NCBI GenBank assembly: GCA_963169535.1 | Contig: CAUJED010000118.1 | Span: 22,834-86,833, forward strand | Length of the DNA stretch: 64,000 bases | Direction of reading: 5' to 3' | Source of the DNA: Bacteroidota bacterium | GTDB lineage: Bacteria; Bacteroidota; Bacteroidia; Flavobacteriales_F; PHOS-HE28 | Shown here: piece after piece, positions 1,355 to 62,140 of the stretch | How the letters are laid out: every line of letters starts with the position of its first letter | Position numbering within the stretch: position 1 is the stretch's first letter | Notes under the pieces: generated by a model | The model's database searches: none | What the model saw: only the letters and a program-made list of their open reading frames with translations | What the model was told of the DNA's origin: nothing | Program-made: the position numbers and the translations under genes

Positions 1355-1873
1355 ATGCACATCCTCCTCTTCATCATCGGTCTGTTGGTGTCCCCGTGTC
1401 TCCACGCACAGGACATTCTGTTCGCGTCCACACCTGAGGATGCCATGAGCCACTATGCCGAGCAGGAGCCGCAGCTCTACGGCCATTGCACGGACAGCCT
1501 GCGGATCGACAGCGTGTACACGGAGGATGCCACCACCGGCGAACTGGTGCTCGGGGTGCAGACCTATCCCTTCGCCCGATACGAATTCTACTTGGACGGC
1601 GCGCTCTACCGCCGGATCGATATTCTCCAGAACATCGACACCCAGGAGGTGGGTTGGCGGCGGGACTTCGGTTCGAGAGATACCATCGGAGTCGTGACAA
1701 CACGAATGATGGACATCCCCAACGGCGCCTATCACGAGTTCTTCCCCAACGGCAACATCCGCGTCAAAGGCACGCTGGATGGCTTCAACGCCGATGGCAC
1801 ACCGAGGAAGACCGGCCAATGGACGGAGTGGGATGAGAAAGGGAACGTGGTACGGCGGGAGACCTATCCTTAG
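1355..1873 (+). CDS. MORN-repeat-variant (YwqK-like) secreted protein
   Basis: Signal-peptide-like N-terminus (MHILLFIIGLLVSPCLHAQ) followed by repeated G/Y-rich MORN-like units (YEFYLDG..., HEFFPNGNIRVKG..., WTEWDEKGNV). The start lies 5 nt after the upstream stop. Confidence 0.5.
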   Translation: MHILLFIIGLLVSPCLHAQDILFASTPEDAMSHYAEQEPQLYGHCTDSLRIDSVYTEDATTGELVLGVQTYPFARYEFYLDGALYRRIDILQNIDTQEVGWRRDFGSRDTIGVVTTRMMDIPNGAYHEFFPNGNIRVKGTLDGFNADGTPRKTGQWTEWDEKGNVVRRETYP

Positions 1874-3243
1874 CGCACCACAACGATCCGTTGCACGGTC
1901 CAGCCGCCGCACCGCACCAGATAGATGCCTTCATTCAGCGGAGCCTGAACATCCACGACCATCGCGTTCGTGCGTGAGGTGGCGAGCAAACGGCCGCCCA
2001 CATCCATCACTTCCACGGTTCCGAGGGGCAACGGTGCTGCGATGTGGAGACGGTCTCCAGCCCACGTGATGGTCGGCTGTTCGGGAACCGTTCCATCAAC
2101 GCCGGTACCGACGAAGTTCAACACACCATCGCAGGTGCTGCTGGCATTGGCGCTGTACGCGGTGAGCTGCAGCTGATACACGCCGCTGTTCGCGTAACGC
2201 TTCCACCCCCACCGTCGGGTGATGGTGTGTCCATCGCCACAAGCGTGCGCGTAGGAGGATGCACCGATCGAGAGGCACCACAGGTAGGCGATGTGCGGCA
2301 TGCCGGAACCGACGGCCTCCGCATGGTATTCGCAACGCACGGCCGTTCCCACGTTGTTCTGCCACTGGCCCGATGCGTTGAACCCGTATCGATGCGTACC
2401 ACTGCTGTTGGACCAATGTACCGTGCCATCCACGATGGTGGGCATGGTGTTCGACACGGAGGAACTGAGTTGTTCGGAACGCCAATCGTTGATGTTCCAG
2501 TCGTATGCCGCCGCACCGAGCGTGCCCGCCGCCGACTTCCACGCCACCACACCCTGTCCGATCGCGGGCACGTTCCCCGCATTGGCGCTCAACTGAGCAC
2601 TGCGCCAGGCATCGAGCGATGGGTCGTAGATGGCCGCGCCCACCGTACCTGCGGCGGACACCCATGCCACGATGCCATCGCGGTTCAAGACCACGTTACC
2701 GCTGTTGGCGCTGAGTTGTGCACTGCGCCACAGGCCGGGCCCAGGATCATACACCGCCGCCCCAACCGTACCCGCATCGGAGACCCAGGAGACCACCCCA
2801 TCGCGGTTCTGGATCTGGTTCCCGCTGTTCGCGCTCACCTGATCCTGCCGCCACTGTTGCCGGGCCGGATCGTACTGCGCCACACCCACGGTCCCCGCCT
2901 CGGACACCCACGCCACCACGCCATCGCTGTTGATGCACGTGTTCCCCGAATTCGTTGACAACAACGACTCGCGGAACATGGCCAGGTCGATATCGTACAC
3001 CACGGCCCGCACGGTGCCCGTGGGCGACACGGTGGCCACCACGCCATCATCGTGTGTCCAACTGGCCACGCTGCTGAAGTTCGTTGTGCGGATCTGGTCC
3101 GTGAGCGGATCGAGCACCGTACAGGTGATCGTGCCTCCGTTCTGGGTGACACTGATCGGCGGGCCCCAGCCCCAGTCGTAGGATTGGGCGTGAATGGGAC
3201 CGACCGTAAGCAGCGATCCCAGGATGGACGAACGGAGCAACAT
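1870..3243 (-). CDS. T9SS C-terminal target (Por secretion) domain protein with internal tandem repeats
   Basis: The C-terminus (GIYLVRCGGWTVQRIVVVR) is typical of a type-IX secretion sorting domain. There are 4-5 tandem ~40-aa repeats of the form DGVVAWVSxAGTVGxAxYDP...WRSxQLSANSGN. The start was chosen at MLLRSSILGSLLTVGPIHAQ (a signal peptide); the tracked ORF extends to 3345. Confidence 0.6.
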   Translation of the reverse strand: MLLRSSILGSLLTVGPIHAQSYDWGWGPPISVTQNGGTITCTVLDPLTDQIRTTNFSSVASWTHDDGVVATVSPTGTVRAVVYDIDLAMFRESLLSTNSGNTCINSDGVVAWVSEAGTVGVAQYDPARQQWRQDQVSANSGNQIQNRDGVVSWVSDAGTVGAAVYDPGPGLWRSAQLSANSGNVVLNRDGIVAWVSAAGTVGAAIYDPSLDAWRSAQLSANAGNVPAIGQGVVAWKSAAGTLGAAAYDWNINDWRSEQLSSSVSNTMPTIVDGTVHWSNSSGTHRYGFNASGQWQNNVGTAVRCEYHAEAVGSGMPHIAYLWCLSIGASSYAHACGDGHTITRRWGWKRYANSGVYQLQLTAYSANASSTCDGVLNFVGTGVDGTVPEQPTITWAGDRLHIAAPLPLGTVEVMDVGGRLLATSRTNAMVVDVQAPLNEGIYLVRCGGWTVQRIVVVR

Positions 3244-3462
3244 GGTGGTGGTAGTTCCATCGAAGCTACGGCTTCCCGGAAATCGACGAAGCACAAATCG
3301 GGTTCGTCGACACATCACCCGTATCCGTCTGGAAACTTGCAGCAATTAACACCCGTAAGAGACCGTCGTGTACCGCATGCGTATAGTTTCACCGCCCCTT
3401 GGCCGTACCGCGAACTGGAACCTCGCACGATGGTACGGCAGGGGAAGAACCTGTAGGATCGA

Positions 3463-8203: not shown

Positions 8204-8553
8204 GGTGGTGCAAGGATAGTGCATGCGGGAACGCGGCCATGCGGCAGGGCAGGTCGGCCACCTCCTTGGTGGCGGTGGGCACCGGTGCCAAGGGCGCGAC
8301 CCCGAGCCAAGCCCCCCGCAGCGCTGAGCGGATACGTTGCAACGCGCGGTAGGCGACACGTGAAAGTACGGTCGACCCGTTCGGCACAAGCTCCTTCGAC
8401 CTATCTTTGTGCCTGGGGCAAGTCCTGTACGACCAGCTCCCGCCGAATCCCCCAGGGCCGGAAGGCAGCAAGGGTAGGCGGTTGAAGCGGTGCGATATGG
8501 GTCGCTTGCCCCTCTTTTTTTGCCTATACCGAAGGGTATCTACCTTTCCGGCC

Positions 8554-25365: not shown

Positions 25366-26406
25366 TCAACGTGCCGCCATCACCCCGCATAGGTGGAAGA
25401 GGAGCCTTGCCCCCACGTTCGCATCCCACTCATCCTTTCCCGGCGCGACCTCTACCAGATCGAACCCGATGATCGTACGTCCACTGCGCACCAATCGCGA
25501 AAGGAGATAGGTCGCTTCCTCATACTGGAAACCGCCCGGCACCGGTGTTCCCGTGTTCGGGCACAGGGTGGGGTCCAGGCCGTCGATATCGAAGCTGACA
25601 TGCACCTTTTGCGGAAGTGAAGCGATGATGGCATCGCACTGTTCGCGCCAGGTGATGCCCTCGTACTGCTGGCGGCGCACATCGGCGCTGCGCACGATAC
25701 GCACCCGCTCCTTGTTCTTCAGGAAGACGTCGTTCTCCTGCTCGCAGAAGTCGCGGATGCCCACGCTCACCAGTTTCGTGAGCTGCTTGATGGGCAACGC
25801 ATTGTACATGATACTGGCGTGGCTGTACGTGAAACCCTCGTAGGCCACGCGCAGGTCGAGGTGCGCATCGATGTGCAGGATGCCGAACTCCTTATGCCGT
25901 GCGGCCTGGGCGCGGAAGAACCCGAGCGGCGTGCTGTGATCGCCCCCTACAAGGCCCACCAACTTGCCCTGGTCCATCCAGTAGGTCGTGCGTTGCTGCA
26001 CCCAATCGTTCAACACCGCGCACTCCGCGTTGATCCGGTCCAACGCCTTCTTCGCCTTCGCACGCTTCTTGGCATCGCCCCCTTCCATCAGCACTTCCAT
26101 CACCTGCTGCGCTTCCTTCTTCAGTGCCTTGCTCTGCTCCAGCAGTGCCTGGGGGATCTCGTCCATGGCGATGCCGCGCTTCCACAGCTCGGGAAACTCC
26201 GGATGGAAGAGGTCCACTTGGAAGCTGGCATCGAAGATGGCCTGGGGCCCATGCGAAGTGCCTCCTCCGTAGCTGGTGGTCACCTCCCACGGCACGGGCA
26301 CCAGCACGATGTCCGCTTCGGCCGTGGTGAACGGCAGTCCATAAATGTCGGCATTGGGGCTTCCCGGACTGTTGGGGTCGAAGGACTTGATCTTGCTGGC
26401 TTTGCT
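25366..26406 (-). CDS. Arginase/agmatinase/formiminoglutamase family metallohydrolase
   Basis: Mn-binding motifs are present (GGDHS, HIDAHLD, SFDIDGLDP). The tracked ORF extends through REP repeats to 26535; the internal Met (MSKASKIK) is preferred. Confidence 0.65.
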   Translation of the reverse strand, partial: SKASKIKSFDPNSPGSPNADIYGLPFTTAEADIVLVPVPWEVTTSYGGGTSHGPQAIFDASFQVDLFHPEFPELWKRGIAMDEIPQALLEQSKALKKEAQQVMEVLMEGGDAKKRAKAKKALDRINAECAVLNDWVQQRTTYWMDQGKLVGLVGGDHSTPLGFFRAQAARHKEFGILHIDAHLDLRVAYEGFTYSHASIMYNALPIKQLTKLVSVGIRDFCEQENDVFLKNKERVRIVRSADVRRQQYEGITWREQCDAIIASLPQKVHVSFDIDGLDPTLCPNTGTPVPGGFQYEEATYLLSRLVRSGRTIIGFDLVEVAPGKDEWDANVGARLLFHLCGVMAAR

Positions 26407-26454
26407 CATGGTGCGTTGGCTGGAGCGGCGAAGGTAGCCGGTTGGATCGTTGGC

Positions 26455-26580
26455 CCCCGCTCCCGCGGATCTGCGATCCATGGTCTCTTCCTCATCCCCG
26501 CTCCCGCGGATCTGCGATCCGTGGTCTCCAGTCATTCCCCGCTACCGCGGATCTGCGATCCGTGGCCTCCAGTCATTCAT
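26455..26580. repeat. Three tandem ~41-bp REP-like direct repeats, each containing the palindrome GGATCTGCGATCC
   Basis: Copies start at 26455, 26496 and 26537. The consensus is CCCCGCTCCCGCGGATCTGCGATCCGTGGTCTCCAGTCATT. Inverted copies occur at 27174-27249. Confidence 0.8.
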
Positions 26581-27154
26581 CGTCATCTACGTTATCGCCA
26601 TGATCTGTGATCACCTCACCCCGGATCGTCTCCAATTTCAGCATCCCTGGTAGACCTGCTTCATCGCGCGCGCTGGAGTACAGGTAATGATGTGGCTCTT
26701 CCACCAAGCCTTCCTCCACCGGGTTGCGGTGAATGTAACGCAGCTTCTGTTGGATGATATCTGCACGTCGTAACCAGATCGGATGCAGGTCATGCTGCCA
26801 CACTTGGTTGCCACCATCCGCCCGCTTGAACTGATCCCTCAACCATTCGCGACGGCTCTCCTGCGGGTTCTCTTCCACCGCTTTAAGCAGTGCTTTCGAG
26901 GTGAATTTCTTGTGGTCGCTCATGATGTCCTGCAGCCGATATCCTGCTTTCGCACGGGCGATCAAGTGAACGTGGTTGGTCATGATGCACCACGCGAAAA
27001 GTTCAAGACCGTTCTCGCGTTGGCAATGACGCAAACTCTCTACGATGATGTCCTTATAGTCGGGCCGTGTCAATACATCCACCCAGCCGACCGTGGCATA
27101 GGTCAGGTAGTGCAGGTCCGTTTGGTCGTAGATCTTGTAGTTGCGGCTCACCAA
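26573..27154 (-). CDS. REP-associated tyrosine transposase (RAYT, IS200/IS605-like HuH-Y1 family)
   Basis: HuH motif (MTNHVHLIARA) and a catalytic-Tyr motif (YIHRNPV). About 193 aa. It is flanked on both sides by REP-like repeats. Confidence 0.7.
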   Translation of the reverse strand: MVSRNYKIYDQTDLHYLTYATVGWVDVLTRPDYKDIIVESLRHCQRENGLELFAWCIMTNHVHLIARAKAGYRLQDIMSDHKKFTSKALLKAVEENPQESRREWLRDQFKRADGGNQVWQHDLHPIWLRRADIIQQKLRYIHRNPVEEGLVEEPHHYLYSSARDEAGLPGMLKLETIRGEVITDHGDNVDDDE

Positions 27155-27173
27155 GCCGAAGTTAGGGATGGCC

Positions 27174-27249
27174 GATCACAGATCGGCGGGAGCATTCCGG
27201 CACAGGTCAACTTTGAAGGAACCACGGATCGCAGATCCGCGGGAGCGGG
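27174..27249. repeat. Inverted REP-like copies upstream of the RAYT start
   Basis: 27222-27249 (CCACGGATCGCAGATCCGCGGGAGCGGG) is the exact reverse complement of the core of the 26455-26580 repeats. A degenerate copy lies at 27174-27200. Confidence 0.75.
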
Positions 27250-27393
27250 AACGACCCGCGCGTCCTAGCCGCGACCAACGTCGGGCACACGGCTTCGGGC
27301 CAGGCCATGCGGTGACCAATGGTTGCCTCTGCCACCGACCGCGCACCCACCCCGGGCACGCTGGCTAACTTGGCCCACCTTTCGCAACCCCTC

Positions 27394-29604: not shown

Positions 29605-29792
29605 TGCCAGTTGTCAGTACAGCGGGCCGGGTCAAGGCCGGGAGCCTTGGGCCGACCGCGACTGACCGCTGACCGTTCCTTCCGCGCATCCGCACCATGC
29701 CCTGGCAACCACCAACTGAGAACAGGCAACCGCTCCCCCCATTGCCAGTTCCCGGCCTTTCCTACCTTGGCGCACCTCAACCCCAACGTTAG

Positions 29793-31271
29793 ATGACGAA
29801 CACCTCGACCACCACGGGTCACCCCAAGGGATTGTACTGGCTTTTCGCCGCGGAGATGTGGGAACGCTTCTGCTACTACGGCATGCGGGCGTTGCTGCTG
29901 CTCTACCTGGTGAAGAGCCTGGCCATGGGCGACAACATGGGATTCGCGGTGTACGGGGCCTATACCGCCCTGGTCTATGTGATGCCGGTGATCGGTGGCC
30001 GGCTCGCCGACCGGATCCTGGGTTCCCGGTTGGCCGTGCTGCTCGGTGGTCTGTTGATGGCCATCGGCGAGTTCATGATCGTGGGTGGCACGGAGATGCT
30101 CCTGTTCTGGGGCATGTCGGTGATCATCGTGGGCAACGGGCTCTTCAAGCCGAACATCAGCACCATGGTGGGCAAGCTCTACCCCGATGGCGACAACCGG
30201 AAGGATAGCGGCTTCACCATCTTCTACATCGGCATCAACCTGGGCGCCCTGCTGGCCACCACGGTATGCGCCGAAGTGGGCAACATCTACGGTGCCCAGT
30301 ACGGGTTCGCGCTGGCCGGGGTGGGCATGCTGCTGGGCGTGCTGATCTTCCACCTGGGTAGCAAACACTATGGGCATGTGAGCCAGCCGCCCTCTCCCGA
30401 GACCCTCTACAAGCCCAAATACGGTCCGCTGAGCCCCTTCAGTGCCGTCATACTGCTGTGCATCGCACTGGTACCGGTGCTCTACTTCCTGTTGCGCAAC
30501 ACCACCATCGCCGGTTACGTGCTCCTGAGCGTGGCCATACTGGTGATCGGCAGTCTGATCGCGCGCGGGTTGAAGGACGGGAAAGTGCAACTGGACAAGA
30601 TGTTCGGCTTCATCATCCTGATGGTCTTCAACGTGGTGTTCTGGGCCTGTTTCGAGCAGGCGGGCAGCAGCCTCACGCTCTTCGCCGACCGTAACGTGGA
30701 TCGGATGATCGGTGGATGGGAGATGGGTGCGGCAACGACCCAGTTCTTCAACCCGGCATACATCCTGATCTTCGGTTCCCTCTTCTCCATCATGTGGGTG
30801 AAGCTCAAGCAAGCGGACCGCGACTTCAGCATCCCGATGAAGTTCGGGATGGGCATCCTCCAACTCGGATTGGGCTACCTGGTGATCCTGCTGGCGGCAC
30901 CGCTGGCCGTGGAGTACCAAGTGCCCTTGTGGACGCTTGCCCTGCTGTACATGCTGCACACCACGGGCGAGTTGTTCCTGTCGCCCATCGGCCTGAGCAT
31001 GGTGACCAAACTGGTACCGAAGGATATGACCGCCACAGCCATGGGAGCTTGGTTCCTGAGCATCGCCGGTGCGAACTACGCCGCAGGTATGCTTGCGAAA
31101 CTGACAGGTGCTGAGCATGGTGCCGGCGAGGCTGAAGTATTGGACAAGGCCGCCAGCCTGGCCACGTACGTGGACGTCTACAGCACCATGGGGTATGTGA
31201 CCGCGGGCATCGGCCTCTTCCTGATGGTGATGAGCCCGTTGATCAACAAGCTCTTCCACGGCGTACGCTAA
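29793..31271 (+). CDS. POT/PTR2 family proton-dependent oligopeptide transporter (paralogue 1)
   Basis: ExxERFxYYG motif (EMWERFCYYG), FYxxINxG (FYIGINLGA), and a 12-14 TM pattern. Confidence 0.8.
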   Translation: MTNTSTTTGHPKGLYWLFAAEMWERFCYYGMRALLLLYLVKSLAMGDNMGFAVYGAYTALVYVMPVIGGRLADRILGSRLAVLLGGLLMAIGEFMIVGGTEMLLFWGMSVIIVGNGLFKPNISTMVGKLYPDGDNRKDSGFTIFYIGINLGALLATTVCAEVGNIYGAQYGFALAGVGMLLGVLIFHLGSKHYGHVSQPPSPETLYKPKYGPLSPFSAVILLCIALVPVLYFLLRNTTIAGYVLLSVAILVIGSLIARGLKDGKVQLDKMFGFIILMVFNVVFWACFEQAGSSLTLFADRNVDRMIGGWEMGAATTQFFNPAYILIFGSLFSIMWVKLKQADRDFSIPMKFGMGILQLGLGYLVILLAAPLAVEYQVPLWTLALLYMLHTTGELFLSPIGLSMVTKLVPKDMTATAMGAWFLSIAGANYAAGMLAKLTGAEHGAGEAEVLDKAASLATYVDVYSTMGYVTAGIGLFLMVMSPLINKLFHGVR

Positions 31272-31286
31272 GCCCTCCTTCCTGTC

Positions 31287-32924
31287 ATGAGCGCAGCCCG
31301 GAAGCACCCCGCCGCCCTGCCCTTCCTGTTCCTCACCGAGATGTGGGAGCGGTTCGGGTATTACCTGATGATCGGCATCTTCCAGCTGTACCTGATGGAC
31401 CCCACGTCCAGCGGTGGATTGGCGATGGAACGCAAGGATGCGGCCGACATCTACGGCACCTTCATCGCGCTGGTGTTCCTCACCCCGTTCATCGGGGGGC
31501 TGCTGGCGGACCGCGTGCTGGGCTATACGAAGGCGATCTTCATCGGTGGCGCGTTGATGGGGCTGGGCTACATCGGGCTGGCCTTGCCGGGCATGACGGC
31601 CTTCTACACCTCGCTCGCACTGATCATCGTGGGCAACGGGTTCTTCAAGCCGAACATCAGCACCCTGCTGGGGAACCTGTACAACGACGACCAGTACCGT
31701 GCACAGAAGGACAGCGGCTACAACATCTTCTACATGGGCATCAACGTAGGGGCGGCCGTATGCAACCTCTTCGCGGCGTACATGCGCAACAAGTACGGCT
31801 GGGGCCACGCCTTCGCAACAGCCGGTGTAGGGATGTTCCTGGGGCTGCTCGTGTTCTACATCGGCCTGAAGCATTATCGCCATGCCGACGTGAAGAAACC
31901 CGTGCAGAAGGAGGACATGCCACTGACCAAGGTGTTCGGCACGGTACTACTCCCGGCCATCATCGTGGGCATGGGCGCATGGGCCATTCCCGGTAACCTG
32001 TTCGGCAGCGACAGCACCGATGCGTTCATCTTCGCCACCATCCCGGTCATCATCTTCTACGTGGGCCTGTACCTCCGTGCCAGCCTGGAGGACAAGAAGC
32101 CGCTCGTTGCGCTGCTCAGCATCTTCGCCGTGAGCATCCTGTTCTGGGCGGTGTTCAAACAGAACGGCACAGCGCTGACCACCTGGGCGCAGTACTACAC
32201 CGACCGTGAGCTGCCCGCGGCCATCGCCCCCACGGCCAACGAGCTGTTCCTGGCCGAGCGCGTGGTGAACGCGAACGACACGGTGCCGGTCTACGACAAC
32301 GAGTTCCGCTTGGTGAAGGAGGATGGGGTGGCACGGACCGAGGTGGGCAAACCCGTCTACTTCAAGAACCTCCAGCCCGAGCGTATGCCGGAGGAAGGCG
32401 GTACACTTTACCTGGGCAACACCGAACTGTTCCAAAGCATCAACCCGTTGTGGGTGATCCTGCTCACGCCGGTGGTGGTGGGCTTCTTCGCCTTTCTGCG
32501 GCGACGGGGTTTGGAGCCGAGCACGGCGAGCAAGATCGGTTGGGGGCTGCTGGTGAGCGCGCTCAGCACCCTGGTGATGGTATGGGCCGTGAGGATCTGC
32601 GACAACGGCGCGATCAAGGCCAGCAGCTGGTGGCTGATCGCCACGTACGGCGTGATCACCATCGGTGAACTGATGCTGAGCCCGATGGGCCTTTCGCTGG
32701 TGAGCAAGGTGAGCCCCAAGCGCCTCACGGCCTTGATGATGGGCGGCTGGTTCCTGAGCACGAGCATCGGCAACAAACTGAGCGGTGTACTGGCCAGCCT
32801 GTGGGACACCTACACCGACAAGGCCGACTTCTTCTGGGTGAACTTCGCCCTATTGATGACGGCCACCCTGATCATGTTCGCCATGCTGCGCTGGCTGAAC
32901 CGCATCATCCCCGAACAGCGCTAA
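31287..32924 (+). CDS. POT/PTR2 family oligopeptide transporter (paralogue 2, with large extracellular insert)
   Basis: EMWERFGYY and FYMGINVGA motifs. It has a ~120-aa hydrophilic insert between the helix bundles. Confidence 0.8.
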   Translation: MSAARKHPAALPFLFLTEMWERFGYYLMIGIFQLYLMDPTSSGGLAMERKDAADIYGTFIALVFLTPFIGGLLADRVLGYTKAIFIGGALMGLGYIGLALPGMTAFYTSLALIIVGNGFFKPNISTLLGNLYNDDQYRAQKDSGYNIFYMGINVGAAVCNLFAAYMRNKYGWGHAFATAGVGMFLGLLVFYIGLKHYRHADVKKPVQKEDMPLTKVFGTVLLPAIIVGMGAWAIPGNLFGSDSTDAFIFATIPVIIFYVGLYLRASLEDKKPLVALLSIFAVSILFWAVFKQNGTALTTWAQYYTDRELPAAIAPTANELFLAERVVNANDTVPVYDNEFRLVKEDGVARTEVGKPVYFKNLQPERMPEEGGTLYLGNTELFQSINPLWVILLTPVVVGFFAFLRRRGLEPSTASKIGWGLLVSALSTLVMVWAVRICDNGAIKASSWWLIATYGVITIGELMLSPMGLSLVSKVSPKRLTALMMGGWFLSTSIGNKLSGVLASLWDTYTDKADFFWVNFALLMTATLIMFAMLRWLNRIIPEQR

Positions 32925-32938
32925 CGCCGCCCCACGCA

Positions 32939-34426
32939 ACCATGGAACGTACCCCCACCCTGCAGGAGATCCGCGACTTCAAAGGAACCTACCCGAAGCA
33001 GCTGCTCCACCTCTTTGGCACCGAGATGTGGGAGCGGTTCTGCTTCTACGGCCTGCGCGGCATGCTGGCGGTGTTCATGGTCACCGAGCTGGGCCTGGCC
33101 GAAAAGGCGGCCAACCTGCAGTACGGGGCCATCCAAGCCTTCGTATACGCCTTCACCTTTCTCGGCGGCGTGTTCGCCGACAAGATCCTCGGCTTCCAGA
33201 AGTCGCTCGTCTGGGGCGCCGCGCTGATGATCATCGGCGGCTTCGTGATCGCTGCCGCCCCCAAGGACTTCTTCTACCTCGGCATCTGCTTCAACATCAT
33301 CGGCACCGGATTCTTCAAGCCGAACATCAGCACCATGGTGGGCCAACTCTACCACGAGGGCGATGCGCGACGCGATGCCGGTTTCGGCCTGTTCTACATG
33401 GGCATCAACATCGGCGCCTTCCTGGGTGGTCTGCTGATGGTGTATGTGGGCAAGGAACACTCCTGGCGCGCCGCCTTCGCCCTGGTGGGTGTGGTGATGA
33501 TCATCAGCCTGATCAACTTCTTCTTCCGTCGCAAGAGCCTGGGACCCATCGGGCTGTCACCGCTTAGCCCGAACATGCCTGCGAACAAGCGCAAGCTGTA
33601 CGAATGGGGCACCTACCTGGGTTCACTGGCCGTGATCCCGTTCATCCTGTTGATGGTGACCAACACCGCGTACACCGACCTGTTCATGTACATCGTGGGG
33701 CCGCTGACGCTGATCTACCTGGCTTGGGAGATGCGCACCTTCAGCCGGGCGGAGAACCTGAAGCTGGGCGCGGCCCTGATCTTCATCTTCTTCAGCGTGT
33801 TCTTCTGGGCCTTCTTCGAGCAGAGTGGGGGCAGCCTGAGCCTCTTCGCCTTGAACAACCTGCGCCCAAGCCTATTCGGCTTCTCGGTGGACACCAACAG
33901 CGTGAACAACGCGGCCAACTCGCTCTTCGTGATCGCCTTCAGTGCGTTGGCAGGCCTGTTCTGGCTGTGGCTGAGCAAGCGCAAAGCCGAACCGAACAGC
34001 GTGGTGAAGTTCGGCCTGGGCTTCGTATTCCTGGCCGGGGGCTTCTACATCTTCAAGAGCACTCTGGGCCTGGCCGATGAGAACGGCATCACCAGCACGG
34101 AGGTGTTCACCTTCGCCTGGTTCGTGATCACCTTCGGCGAACTGTGCCTATCGCCCATCGGCCTGTCGTTGATGACCAAGCTGAGCCCTGTGCGCATCCA
34201 AGGCCTGATGATGGGCATGTGGTTCCTGGCCAGTGCTTACGGGCAGTACGCCGCCGGGCTGCTGGGCGCGGGCATGAGCGCCGAGGACCCCAACGCCAGC
34301 AACTACGATAAGTTGGTGCTGTACACCGAGGGTTACGGCCAACTGGGTCTCTACGCCCTCATCGCCGGTGGAGCCTTGATCCTGCTGTCGCCGCTGGTGC
34401 GAAGAATGATGCAGGAAGTGAAATGA
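32939..34426 (+). CDS. POT/PTR2 family oligopeptide transporter (paralogue 3)
   Basis: EMWERFCFYG and FYMGINIGA motifs. The start is at MERTPTLQEI (internal Met of the tracked ORF). Confidence 0.8.
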   Translation, partial: TMERTPTLQEIRDFKGTYPKQLLHLFGTEMWERFCFYGLRGMLAVFMVTELGLAEKAANLQYGAIQAFVYAFTFLGGVFADKILGFQKSLVWGAALMIIGGFVIAAAPKDFFYLGICFNIIGTGFFKPNISTMVGQLYHEGDARRDAGFGLFYMGINIGAFLGGLLMVYVGKEHSWRAAFALVGVVMIISLINFFFRRKSLGPIGLSPLSPNMPANKRKLYEWGTYLGSLAVIPFILLMVTNTAYTDLFMYIVGPLTLIYLAWEMRTFSRAENLKLGAALIFIFFSVFFWAFFEQSGGSLSLFALNNLRPSLFGFSVDTNSVNNAANSLFVIAFSALAGLFWLWLSKRKAEPNSVVKFGLGFVFLAGGFYIFKSTLGLADENGITSTEVFTFAWFVITFGELCLSPIGLSLMTKLSPVRIQGLMMGMWFLASAYGQYAAGLLGAGMSAEDPNASNYDKLVLYTEGYGQLGLYALIAGGALILLSPLVRRMMQEVK

Positions 34427-46428: not shown

Positions 46429-46518
46429 TGGCGGAGAGGGAGGGATTCGAACCCCCGGTGCCCTTGCGAGCACTTCTGTTTTCGAGACAGACCCGTTCGA
46501 CCACTCCGGCACCTCTCC
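46429..46518 (-). tRNA. tRNA-Ser (anticodon CGA), type II with long variable arm, CCA encoded
   Basis: The reverse complement folds with acceptor GGAGAGG/CCTCTCC, anticodon stem TCTGT/ACAGA and loop CTCGAAA. It has an 18-nt variable arm, a GGTTCGAATCC T-loop, discriminator G and CCA. Confidence 0.85.
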
Positions 46519-49729: not shown

Positions 49730-49775
49730 CCACACCCTGCCCCGGGAACAACAAAGCCCCTTGCGGGGCTTTGGG

Positions 49776-49850
49776 GGTGGTAGACCGGGCTTGAACCGGC
49801 GACCTCCGGAACCACAATCCGGCGCTCTAACCAACTGAGCTACAACCACC
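49776..49850 (-). tRNA. tRNA-His (anticodon GTG) with encoded G-1, CCA not encoded
   Basis: The reverse complement reads G-GTGGTTG-TA-GCTCAGTTGGTTAGAGC-G-CCGGA-TTGTGGT-TCCGG-AGGTC-GCCGGTTCAAGCCCGGT-CTACCAC-C. It has a canonical D- and T-arm, and G-1 opposite C73 as in tRNA-His. There is one T:T mismatch in the acceptor stem (6:67). Confidence 0.75.
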
Positions 49851-60474: not shown

Positions 60475-60600
60475 GGTGCGAAGGAGTACGGCCTTGGGCC
60501 GTGATGCAAAGATGCAGCATGCGGAATGCAGAAGGCCTTAGGCGGGATCCAGAAGGTACTGAGACGGCATGAAAGAACCGGTCGATCCAATGGTGAAAAG

Positions 60601-60649
60601 GTGAAAGGGTGAAAAACGTGAGAAGGTGAAATGCCTCGCACCCTTTCAC
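60601..60649. promoter_or_regulatory. Perfect 11-bp inverted repeat (GTGAAAGGGTG / CACCCTTTCAC) within a GTGAAA-repeat tract upstream of purB
   Basis: Read directly from the sequence. The stem arms are at 60601-60611 and 60639-60649. Five GTGAAA-like units lie at 60592-60630. Confidence 0.4.
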
Positions 60650-60781: not shown

Positions 60782-62140
60782 ATGGAACTGGATACCCTCA
60801 CCGCCATCTCTCCGATCGATGGCCGCTACCGCGAGCGAACACGTGGGCTGGCGCACTGGTTCAGCGAACAAGCCCTGATGCGCTACCGCCTGCGGGTGGA
60901 ACTGGAGTACTTCACCTTCCTGTGCGAAGTGCCCCTGCCCGAACTTGCCGGTACGCCGTTGCAGAAGCTGGACGCCGTGCGCAGCCGCGTGGAGCAGTTG
61001 GGGACCACCGATGCCCAGCGCATCAAGGCGATCGAGCAGGTCACCAACCACGATGTGAAGGCCATCGAGTACTTCCTGAAGGAACGGCTGGAAGAGGCCG
61101 GACTCGGTGAACAGCGCGAGTTCGTCCACTTCGCGCTCACCAGTCAGGACATCAACAACACGGCGCTACCGCTGCTGATCAAGGACTTCGTGTTCGAGGC
61201 GTACCTGCCTGCGATCACCGGTCTGCGCGACCGCCTGCACGGCCTCGCGCTGGATTGGGCGCGCATACCCATGCTGGCGCGCACACACGGACAGCCCGCG
61301 TCGCCCACCGCGCTCGGCAAGGAGATCCAAGTGTTCGTGGAGCGGCTGGACGGTCAGCTGAAACTGCTGCGCGAGGTGCCCTTCACCGGCAAGTTCGGCG
61401 GGGCCACGGGCAACTTCAACGCGCACCACGCGGCCTACCCGGAACTGGACTGGGTGCGGCTGGCCGACCGCTTCCTGCTAGAAAAACTGGGCCTACAGCG
61501 CCAGCGCTTCACCACGCAGATCGAGCATTACGACGGCCTTGCCGCGCTGTTCGATGCCATGCGCCGCATCAACACCATCCTCGTTGACCTGTGCCGCGAC
61601 ATGTGGCAGTACATCAGCATGGACTACTTCCGCCAGCGCATCAAGGCGGGCGAGGTGGGCAGCAGCGCCATGCCGCACAAGGTGAACCCGATCGATTTCG
61701 AGAACGCCGAAGGCAACCTCGGCCTCGCCAGCGCCCTGTTCGGCTTCCTCAGTGAGAAACTGCCCATCAGTCGCCTGCAACGCGACCTCACCGACAGCAC
61801 CGTGACGCGCAACATCGGCGTGCCCATGGCGCACACCATGATCGCGGTCGATGCCATCGAGAAGGGCCTCGGCAAGCTGCTGCTGAACGAAGCGGCCCTC
61901 GAACGCGACCTCGATGCACAATGGCCCGTGGTGGCCGAAGGCATCCAGACCATCCTGCGCCGCGCCGGTGTGGAGCAGCCCTACGAAAAGCTGAAGGACC
62001 TCACGCGCGGCAAGGAGCGCATCACGCAACAGGACATCACCGCGTTCATCGACACGCTGGACGTGAGCAACGACGTGCGCAGGCAGCTGAAGGCGCTGTC
62101 GCCACGGAATTACACGGGGGTGGACCTGTTGGGGCGGTAG
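60782..62140 (+). CDS. purB: Adenylosuccinate lyase
   Basis: The N-terminus (ISPIDGRYRERT) and the fumarate-lyase signature (GSSAMPHKVNP) are present. Length about 452 aa. Confidence 0.9.
   Translation: MELDTLTAISPIDGRYRERTRGLAHWFSEQALMRYRLRVELEYFTFLCEVPLPELAGTPLQKLDAVRSRVEQLGTTDAQRIKAIEQVTNHDVKAIEYFLKERLEEAGLGEQREFVHFALTSQDINNTALPLLIKDFVFEAYLPAITGLRDRLHGLALDWARIPMLARTHGQPASPTALGKEIQVFVERLDGQLKLLREVPFTGKFGGATGNFNAHHAAYPELDWVRLADRFLLEKLGLQRQRFTTQIEHYDGLAALFDAMRRINTILVDLCRDMWQYISMDYFRQRIKAGEVGSSAMPHKVNPIDFENAEGNLGLASALFGFLSEKLPISRLQRDLTDSTVTRNIGVPMAHTMIAVDAIEKGLGKLLLNEAALERDLDAQWPVVAEGIQTILRRAGVEQPYEKLKDLTRGKERITQQDITAFIDTLDVSNDVRRQLKALSPRNYTGVDLLGR

Follow-up and report, generated by a model that had tools for sequence, protein, structure and literature searches.

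In a 64,000-nucleotide stretch of a Bacteroidota genome (contig CAUJED010000118.1, positions 22,834 to 86,833; hereafter the window), the gene for a tyrosine transposase (RAYT) associated with repetitive extragenic palindromes (REPs) lies between inverted copies of a short hairpin-forming repeat. The locus is very probably a 'REPtron' of the Bacteroidota-type RAYT family, namely, an intact gene for a HUH/Y1 transposase of single-stranded DNA (ssDNA) set between inverted cognate REPs of about 35 nt. The reading is supported by the intactness of the enzyme, by the asymmetry of the hairpins that bracket it, and by the presence in relatives of extragenic single REPs and of REP doublets without a RAYT. 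A first-pass annotation, made from the letters alone, had proposed a RAYT flanked by its own REP-like repeats. That proposal is borne out by the family models, by the fold of the protein and by the inverted REPs that bracket the gene in every homologous locus examined.

The RAYT (TnpA_REP) gene occupies positions 26573-27151 of the minus strand, with its stop codon (TGA) at 26573-26575, and the open reading frame (ORF) is intact. The ORF as listed (26573-27154, minus strand) has 193 aa from a TTG, which is the length first assigned to the protein. The true start is judged instead to be the GTG at 27151, giving 192 aa, because the alignment of related units and homologues puts it there and because the 192-aa product is the only one on record in public assemblies. 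When exact products were looked up, the 193-aa protein with the TTG start gave no match and the 192-aa GTG form was matched. The motifs named at first pass, HVH and YIHRNPV, stand. The HuH motif reads N59-H60-V61-H62, a W118-Q119 pair follows, the catalytic tyrosine is in Y139-IHRNP, 79 aa from H60, and the tail carries Y158-S-S-A. In an alignment of 24 homologues the HuH histidines, W118, Y139-x-H-x-N-P-V and Y158-S-S-A are invariant, and the more distant members have YIHQNP or YLHNNP in place of YIHRNP. An acidic C-terminal extension of 17-20 aa is specific to this high-GC sub-lineage and is translated through an inner REP-like palindrome described below.

The protein matches Pfam Y1_Tnp (36 bits). 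On the curated NCBIfam model for REP-associated tyrosine transposases (NF047646) it scores 97.0 bits, above the cutoff of 80, and on the IS200 model (NF033573) it scores 27.4 bits, below the cutoff of 55; by these models it is not an ordinary IS200 TnpA. A search found 759 homologues, mainly in Flavobacteriales and other Bacteroidota, from metagenome-assembled genomes (MAGs) and from metagenomes; the sources give the name RayT to several of them. The AlphaFold model has a confidence (pLDDT) of 87. Its best Foldseek match in the PDB is 4ER8, E. coli TnpA_REP with bound REP hairpin (E 3.2e-8; TM scores 0.63/0.72 over 179 columns), and the IS200/IS605 TnpAs rank behind it, with TM about 0.45. Searches of the PDB by sequence only gave weak matches (E 0.001-0.01), so that a comparison of folds was required.

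The REP consensus, drawn from many copies, is (C)CCCC-GCT-[C/A]-CCGCGGATC-TGC-GATCCGTGG-T, with no conservation past about 35 nt. Its parts are a 5' foot rich in C, (CCCC)GCTC(C), a stem of 9 bp, CCGCGGATC/GATCCGTGG, in which one pair is G.T, and a loop of 3 nt. Hairpin prediction had been proposed as a check at first pass, and hairpins are indeed predicted: as ssDNA the strand that carries the foot folds at -7.6 kcal/mol (z -3.05). Its complement gives a weaker fold (-5.9 kcal/mol, z -0.7), indicating that the REP has a preferred strand. On the 5' side of the gene there is one such REP (27215-27254, minus strand; core 27221-27249), whose core is 70-98 nt 5' of the GTG. The DNA that the unit has in common with related units extends as far as the outer edge of this REP, its CCCGCT foot. 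On the 3' side there are three 41-nt units arranged head to tail (26454-26576; identity 78/100/95%; 3.0 copies by Tandem Repeats Finder), as first described, with the last covering the RAYT stop. The 5' REP is inverted relative to this array, and the feet on both sides point away from the gene. The upstream side had been credited with two inverted copies carrying the same palindrome as every other repeat. One of these, at 27221-27249, is exact; the other, at 27168-27196, is a diverged inner hairpin that carries CGATCTGTGATCG instead of GGATCTGCGATCC. Comparison of the arrangement with bacterial interspersed mosaic elements (BIMEs) also fails, since BIMEs alternate in orientation and the 3' array is a direct tandem with a 41-nt period.

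The three 3' units, all on the plus strand, differ in history. Unit C (26536-26576; 29-nt core 26538-26566, foot GCTAC), which overlaps the RAYT stop, is the ancestral 3' REP, the orthologue of the single 3' REP in the related units of loci L121 and L064. Unit B (26495-26535; core 26497-26525) is a tandem duplicate of C. It holds CTCCAGTCATTC, 12 nt copied from the 3' end of RAYT, and so arose by local tandem duplication, and it is missing from related units, which makes the duplication lineage-specific; it is identical in six independent contigs of the same species. Unit A (26454-26494; core 26456-26484), the outermost, has a G>A variant, GATCCATGG, and a tail, GTCTCTTCCTCA, that resembles solo REPs at other sites.

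Could the repeats be unrelated to the gene, that is, chance palindromes or a local tandem repeat that happens to lie beside a pseudogene of the IS200 family? Within the window the repeats do occur only at this locus, as such a reading would have it. With up to 3 mismatches, the 19-mer GCGGATCTGCGATCCGTGG has four matches in the 64 kb, all at the RAYT locus. However, 0.04 matches are expected by chance, and 0 of 100 dinucleotide-preserving shuffles reach the observed count. In addition, homologous genes in independent contigs are all bracketed by this repeat, and the ORF is intact with a high-confidence model. The shuffles and the bracketing of homologues refute the reading, and its probability is negligible. 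Readings of the tandem units as CRISPR-like repeats or as terminators were rejected as well, as there are no spacers and no T-runs and the repeat brackets each homologue. A 14-mer common to the unit (27198-27211) and to positions 61583-61596 was set aside as a chance match within a coding region, and no other short repeat family was found in the window.

In related genomes the REP recurs away from the gene, in keeping with the first-pass view of it. A scan of species-representative genomes in a genome collection with a 17-mer gave at least 120 stretches. Among the matches listed, about 20 are in MAGs named 'Flavobacteriales bacterium' and share the extended consensus; about 100 are chance matches in other GC-rich phyla, without extended similarity. 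With a stricter pattern of 25 nt, 58 contigs were found in JGI metagenomes. A census was made of 77 loci (374 kb) of related MAGs and metagenomes, all fetched for containing the motif, by counting REP copies with up to 4 mismatches. It holds 121 REP copies and 15 full-length RAYTs, each RAYT bracketed by inverted REPs. Fifty-three of the copies are within 300 nt of RAYT-like DNA and 68 are farther off, and 46 of the loci have no RAYT similarity at all. The copies are predominantly extragenic: 113 of the 121 fall outside high-GC3 ORFs (predicted genes, rich in G+C at third codon positions), though such ORFs make up 54% of the bases.

The REPs of relatives take the form of RAYT-flanking pairs, of inverted doublets of 83-305 bp and, predominantly, of singletons. 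The inverted doublets are internally deleted units that retain, besides their REPs, the inner hairpin and the initial codons of RAYT. A 212-nt deletion derivative has the same junction in different flanks in L177 and L187, and L187 has a second copy of it, cut by the contig end. An element of about 210 nt in L012, 81% similar to the 212-nt derivative, is in yet another flank. Truncated unit fragments also adjoin REPs in some related loci.

The REP-RAYT-REP segment as a whole behaves as a unit. At every related RAYT locus examined the same inverted REPs bracket the gene, and the similarity of one locus to another ends precisely with the outer REP feet. Flavobacteriales MAGs with the unit include HK-STAS-BACT-58, UBA7690, AC3.41 and OdNE MAXAC.100. 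The flanks of the unit are unrelated in different lineages (the window, L121/L064, L047 and L125), and related RAYTs, of 79-93% aa identity, occupy other loci. Forms with two tandem copies and with one copy coexist at one locus, and the relative L064 has two tandem copies. At the species level the picture is one of stability. Forty-four blocks of the collection have an index entry for the exact 192-aa protein, and the six places shown for it and five more listed as similar are all in the context DPP-IV (dipeptidyl peptidase IV)/RAYT/arginase (23 contigs read). An 821-nt REP-RAYT-REP segment is identical in the six same-species contigs checked, and the identical locus is present in contigs from the sequencing runs SRR30566755, ERR10643334 and SRR32936303.

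The arginase/agmatinase-family gene on the 3' side (25366-26412, minus strand) allows the site of the unit to be compared with relatives. The nearest agmatinase relatives (93, 90 and 84% aa identity; loci L194-L197) keep the DSBA/SLT/GDSL/MBOAT synteny downstream. None of the three has a RAYT or a REP at this locus, and their upstream neighbours differ (PspC; an Na/H exchanger; an unknown 423-aa ORF). Nucleotide homology with the closest relative stops at 26436, 18 nt from the REP array. The unit is therefore at a synteny breakpoint, just upstream of the core promoter of the agmatinase gene. A clean pre-insertion 'empty site' was sought in these relatives and given up in favor of a breakpoint, as each has another upstream neighbour.

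The sharp boundaries at the REP feet and the unrelated flanks across lineages are also what would be expected if REP-RAYT-REP were an autonomous IS200-type element that is still moving and spreading horizontally, rather than a domesticated RAYT inherited vertically. The doublets would then be miniature inverted-repeat transposable elements (MITEs) and the singletons solo ends. The coexistence of tandem and single forms at one locus, the truncated fragments beside REPs, and the absence of the unit from the site in the three nearest agmatinase relatives would fit as well. So would base composition: the GC3 of RAYT is 0.67 against 0.80-0.87 in four neighbouring genes. A further point comes from the P0011 lineage, where contigs differ from one another at 1-3 of about 720 nt in the unit and at 21-66 of about 1178 nt in the adjacent carB. 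In terms of identity, the unit is 99.6-99.9% conserved among L125, L126, L127 and L129 against 94.2-98.2% for the adjacent carB, and the gene content upstream of it is hypervariable. L143 and L064 show the same pattern (94.5% against 77.7%). The excess of conservation in the unit over its flanks, together with the GC3, hints at horizontal exchange or homogenisation, with effects of metagenome assembly and recombination as alternatives.

Several observations speak against autonomy. The RAYT is present once in the 64 kb, with no second RAYT-like ORF there, and the exact protein is in a single context in 11 of the 11 places reported. The P0011 protein, too, has carB as its downstream neighbour in each of the five contigs for which there is DNA. 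Its apparent occurrence in several contexts had been taken as evidence of transposition, and this was withdrawn when pairwise BLAST revealed carB as the common downstream neighbour, only the upstream side being different. The protein fails the IS200 model, its tyrosine motif is of the RAYT type, and there is no tnpB beside the gene. Few plasmid records carry the RAYT family (8 of 72,556), and no phage record does. No identical pair of full units in different flanks was seen within one genome. An autonomous element is on balance an unlikely account.

A related suggestion, offered tentatively and held no more probable than full autonomy, is that this high-GC Flavobacteriales lineage may keep a stage part-way from an autonomous IS200-like element to a domesticated system of RAYT and REPIN (REP doublet forming a hairpin, defined as two inverted REPs with a short spacer that replicate together to high copy number). 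The REP-RAYT-REP unit of about 0.7 kb would still relocate, or be exchanged between strains, with a preference for sites beside existing REPs; it would shed MITE-like, internally deleted doublets and solo REPs, and it would accrete REPs at its ends. Accretion of this kind would account for the nesting of inner and outer hairpins and for the tandem arrays. Such a stage, if real, would contradict strictly vertical inheritance of RAYT-REPIN systems.

Two other genes were noted near related units. A second, divergent RAYT-like ORF (NHAH, YIHANPV; about 25% identity) is found in L064 (6203-6970) and L176 (12-494), 1.5-3 kb from the REP-RAYT-REP unit; the window has none. In L128 (2594-2857) a bAvd gene, for a diversity-generating retroelement accessory protein, is about 300 nt upstream of the RAYT unit.

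Inside the outer REPs the unit has a second, more diverged pair of palindromes. The inner left hairpin (27168-27196, minus strand), GCTCC-CGCCGATC-TGT-GATCGGCC, is between the 5' REP and the start codon. Its foot is GCTCC, its stem GCCGATC/GATCGGC and its loop TGT. It is REP-like, matching 20 of 29 positions of the REP consensus, and relative to the outer REP its stem has a compensatory flip of G-C to C-G. As ssDNA it folds at -6.8 to -7.2 kcal/mol (z about -3.2), and it is kept in all related units and in their deletion derivatives. The inner right palindrome, ATGATCTGTGATCAC (26600-26614, plus strand), is in the 3' coding region of RAYT, where it codes for ..VITDH.. in the protein. It mirrors the core of the inner left hairpin, GATCTGTGATC, and is kept in the unit alignment. 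As a stable hairpin it is weak, not being the minimum-energy fold in the folding test, and it is proposed as an element only tentatively.

A promoter-like motif, TAACTTCG (27157-27164, minus strand), is found 5 nt 5' of the RAYT GTG and is kept as TA(A/C/T)CTTCG in related units. A similar sequence, TACCTTCG, precedes the ATG of the agmatinase-family gene by about 22 nt (about 26434-26441, minus strand) in the window, L194 and L196. The Bacteroidetes -7 promoter consensus is TAnnTTTG. By analogy, TAACTTCG and TACCTTCG may possibly, and speculatively, be this lineage's variant of the -7 box. If TAACTTCG is a promoter box, the inner hairpin becomes a candidate operator, which is equally speculative.

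Another reading is that the system is a relic, in which the transposase has been retained or co-opted for another role and the REPs, no longer mobile, are now only structural or regulatory hairpins that, for example, insulate or terminate transcription between RAYT and the agmatinase gene. The array does abut the core promoter region of that gene, the locus and its array are invariant across independent samples, and REP density is very low. RAYTs have in fact been described as housekeeping-like, single-copy genes (Bertels et al., 2017; PMC5581495). However, the catalytic HuH and tyrosine residues are intact here and invariant across the family, and the hairpins are without the T-run typical of intrinsic terminators. 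Moreover, many different flanks in species-level MAGs hold REPs with fewer than 2 mismatches, and several sites hold deletion derivatives, which speaks for movement that is recent on an evolutionary scale. A relic is thus improbable, distinctly more so than an autonomous element.

For the REPtron reading, a course of events can be proposed. The mechanism of E. coli TnpA_REP and of the TnpAs of IS608 and ISDra2 is established and serves as the model. By analogy, RAYT would bind the REP hairpin on ssDNA, for example at a replication fork, would read the 5' foot as a guide, and would cleave nearby with Tyr139 to form a 5'-phosphotyrosine link. Strand rejoining could then excise REP singlets or doublets and reinsert them in trans. 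The products to be expected, RAYT-less inverted doublets formed from the unit by internal deletion and many extragenic singletons, are present in relatives. In this species the RAYT occupies one fixed site. Local amplification has turned the 3' REP into a tandem of three units, one of which at least arose by local tandem duplication, as its 12 nt from the RAYT 3' end show.

The immediate neighbours of the unit are as given at first pass: the arginase-family gene on the 3' side of RAYT and, beyond the 5' REP, the gene for DPP-IV followed by PTR2 transporters. The claim that both neighbouring frames read through the repeats holds on the arginase side and not on the DPP-IV side, where the ORF starts at 27319. 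The ATG at which public gene calls start the agmatinase-family gene owes its existence to the G>A variant of REP unit A (26412-26481, minus strand). The miscalled product (P0121) is 371 aa long, 23 of its residues being REP-encoded. The true start is judged to be the ATG at 26412, because more than 100 homologues are 345-350 aa long. The three genes after DPP-IV (about 29700-34200) are paralogues of the PTR2/POT (proton-dependent oligopeptide transporter) family and make up a peptide-uptake locus; they have 14-44-mers in common at 30121-33343, and L133, a contig of the same species, also has three PTR2 genes.

Elsewhere in the window, the Bacteroidota origin of the DNA is confirmed, despite a G+C content of 62%, by a Bacteroidales-type small signal recognition particle (SRP) RNA at 8409-8515 (plus strand; Rfam RF04183, 102 bits). 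The bin at 26-28 kb has the second-lowest G+C of the window profile (0.608). There are genes for tRNA-Ser(cga) at 46429-46518 and for tRNA-His(gtg) at 49772-49850, both on the minus strand. A 123-nt tandem repeat at 2633-2931 (2.4 copies, 74% match), which falls within long overlapping ORFs (1870-3345, minus, and 2044-2958, plus), is probably a repeated protein domain. A short tandem repeat at 60592-60631 can be read as GGTGAAAA repeated 4.9 times or as a 17-nt unit repeated 2.4 times.

Among published classes, the locus fits TnpA_Y1 subclass 2.6 (Quentin et al., 2018; PMC6006769), the same group as that numbered RAYT Group 5 by Bertels et al. (2017; PMC5581495). Subclass 2.6 is mostly from Bacteroidetes, has a mean length of about 179 aa, and is marked by NH[LIV]H, WQ, YIH[QN]NP, a median HuH-Y spacing of 82 aa and a C-terminal SS motif (PMC6006769). 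Its examples include Flavobacterium indicum CCG52342.1, Aequorivita sublithincola AFL81591.1, Owenweeksia hongkongensis AEV33511.1 and Bacteroides xylanisolvens CBK69331.1. The window RAYT agrees in host, in length (about 180-190 aa), in NH[LIV]H, WQ, YIHxNP and the C-terminal SS, and in the long HuH-Y spacing (79 aa against the median of 82). In both cases the gene is flanked by REPs without GT[AG]G, with more copies at other sites, which for the window REP are those in relatives. The REPs themselves follow the same plan, namely, a GCTx(x) foot, an 8-9-bp stem of the form (C)CGCG...CGTG(G) with a G.T pair, and a loop of 3-4 nt. In Table S1 of PMC6006769 the REP of F. indicum has the foot GCTC, the stem CCGCGCGAA/TTCGCGTGG and the loop TCCT; that of A. 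sublithincola the foot GCTAG, the stem CGCGAGCG/CGCTCGTG and the loop TCC; and that of B. xylanisolvens the foot GTTC, the stem CAGCGGATT/AATCCGCTG and the loop TAT. The REP of the window, in the same terms, has the foot GCTC, the stem CCGCGGATC/GATCCGTGG and the loop TGC. Its foot and the outer part of its stem, G.T pair included, are those of F. indicum, and its inner stem differs by changes that are fully compensated. Owenweeksia REPs begin CCCCGCTAG (Table S1, PMC6006769), the same CCCCGCT beginning as here. Features that set the window apart from the subclass are the acidic C-terminal extension, the direct 3' array of three units, the nested inner hairpin pair and an inner stem, GATC/GATC, specific to its lineage.

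Some points weigh against the REPtron reading or its class placement. The tyrosine motif has Arg at the [QN] position; YIHRNP is closer to the 2.6 motif than to those of 2.4 (YIxNNP) or 2.2 (YIHYNP). The foot, (CCCC)GCTC(C), is not the canonical guide; a 5' GT[AG]G defines the canonical REPs of subclasses 2.2, 2.4, 2.5, 2.7 and 2.8, and not those of 2.6 (PMC6006769). The fit to subclass 2.6 and Group 5 is based on motifs and REP architecture. Group 5 is not counted among the clearly REPIN-associated groups (PMC5581495), and no transposition activity is reported for any subclass-2.6 enzyme in PMC6006769 or PMC5581495. In the source genome, REPs are seen only beside the RAYT within the 64-kb window, the dispersal being seen in relatives; the other ~63 kb of the window has no further copy, even when as many as 9 of the 29 positions may mismatch. 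Nor are there dispersed REPs in about 165 kb fetched for other reasons (the window remainder, L121, L124, L125 and L194-L197), about 100 kb of which is related DNA. Because DNA fetched without a REP match has no dispersed copy, the family appears to be at most low-copy. This low density agrees with the frequency of 16-mers flanking Group 5 genes, which is about 31 per replicon, like that of insertion sequence (IS) flanks and far below that of Groups 2 and 3 (PMC5581495).

A RAYT in Bacteroidota is not the novelty that the first-pass annotation took it to be: a Bacteroidetes-dominated subclass with 'atypical' GTAG-less REPs was published in 2017-2018 (PMC5581495; PMC6006769), and the locus adds another example of it. 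The example is, however, a cleanly delimited one from a little-studied subclass for which the cited literature (PMC6006769; PMC5581495) has no biochemistry. Its REP has an unambiguous foot, stem and loop, and strand asymmetry. The series from full unit to deleted doublets to singletons offers material for testing how REPs without GTAG are recognized and moved. There is a practical consequence for annotation, since public calls lengthen the agmatinase-family gene by the REP-encoded residues. If the conservation of the unit over its flanks does reflect horizontal exchange, it would also qualify the picture of RAYT-REPIN systems as 'vertically inherited replicators'.

The E. coli system (TnpA_REP, or YafM; 4ER8; subclass 2.2, Group 2) has the same HUH/Y1 fold and Y-x-x-x-NP motif. 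There too, inverted REP hairpins with an unpaired 5' guide bracket the gene, which is single-copy (here, within the 64 kb), and cleavage and rejoining of ssDNA are presumed, by analogy, to be common to both. The proteins are only 18% identical. The guide is GCTC(C) here and GTAG in E. coli, the HuH motif is NHVH here and DHLH there, and the window protein has an extra segment between the HuH and Y motifs. REP copies here appear to be fewer by at least an order of magnitude, and they are in direct tandem, without the alternation of BIMEs. In the REPIN-RAYT systems of Pseudomonas (Group 3; Bertels & Rainey, 2011; PMC3116915), as here, inverted doublets resemble non-autonomous derivatives of the RAYT flanks, placement is extragenic, and the RAYT is at a fixed locus within a lineage. 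In contrast to Pseudomonas, singletons dominate here, copy number is low, and the doublets are longer (83-305 nt) and keep pieces of the RAYT unit. Also, in one of the related lineages the conservation of the unit far exceeds that of the adjacent carB, an outcome not expected under strict vertical inheritance.

The TnpAs of IS200/IS605 elements (IS200, IS608, ISDra2; subclass 1.1) belong to the same superfamily, and the core fold is common to them and the window protein (TM about 0.45). They differ in having Y[IV]ENQ where the window has YIHRNP, and in having flanking hairpins on one strand where those of the window are inverted. The failed IS200 hidden Markov model, the missing tnpB and the lack of multi-copy identical elements among the loci seen also separate the window unit from them. 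In both groups, nevertheless, the hairpins are subterminal and recognized on ssDNA, although for the window this is by analogy. IS200 has two 5' hairpins ahead of its start codon, a parallel to the outer REP and inner hairpin of the window unit.

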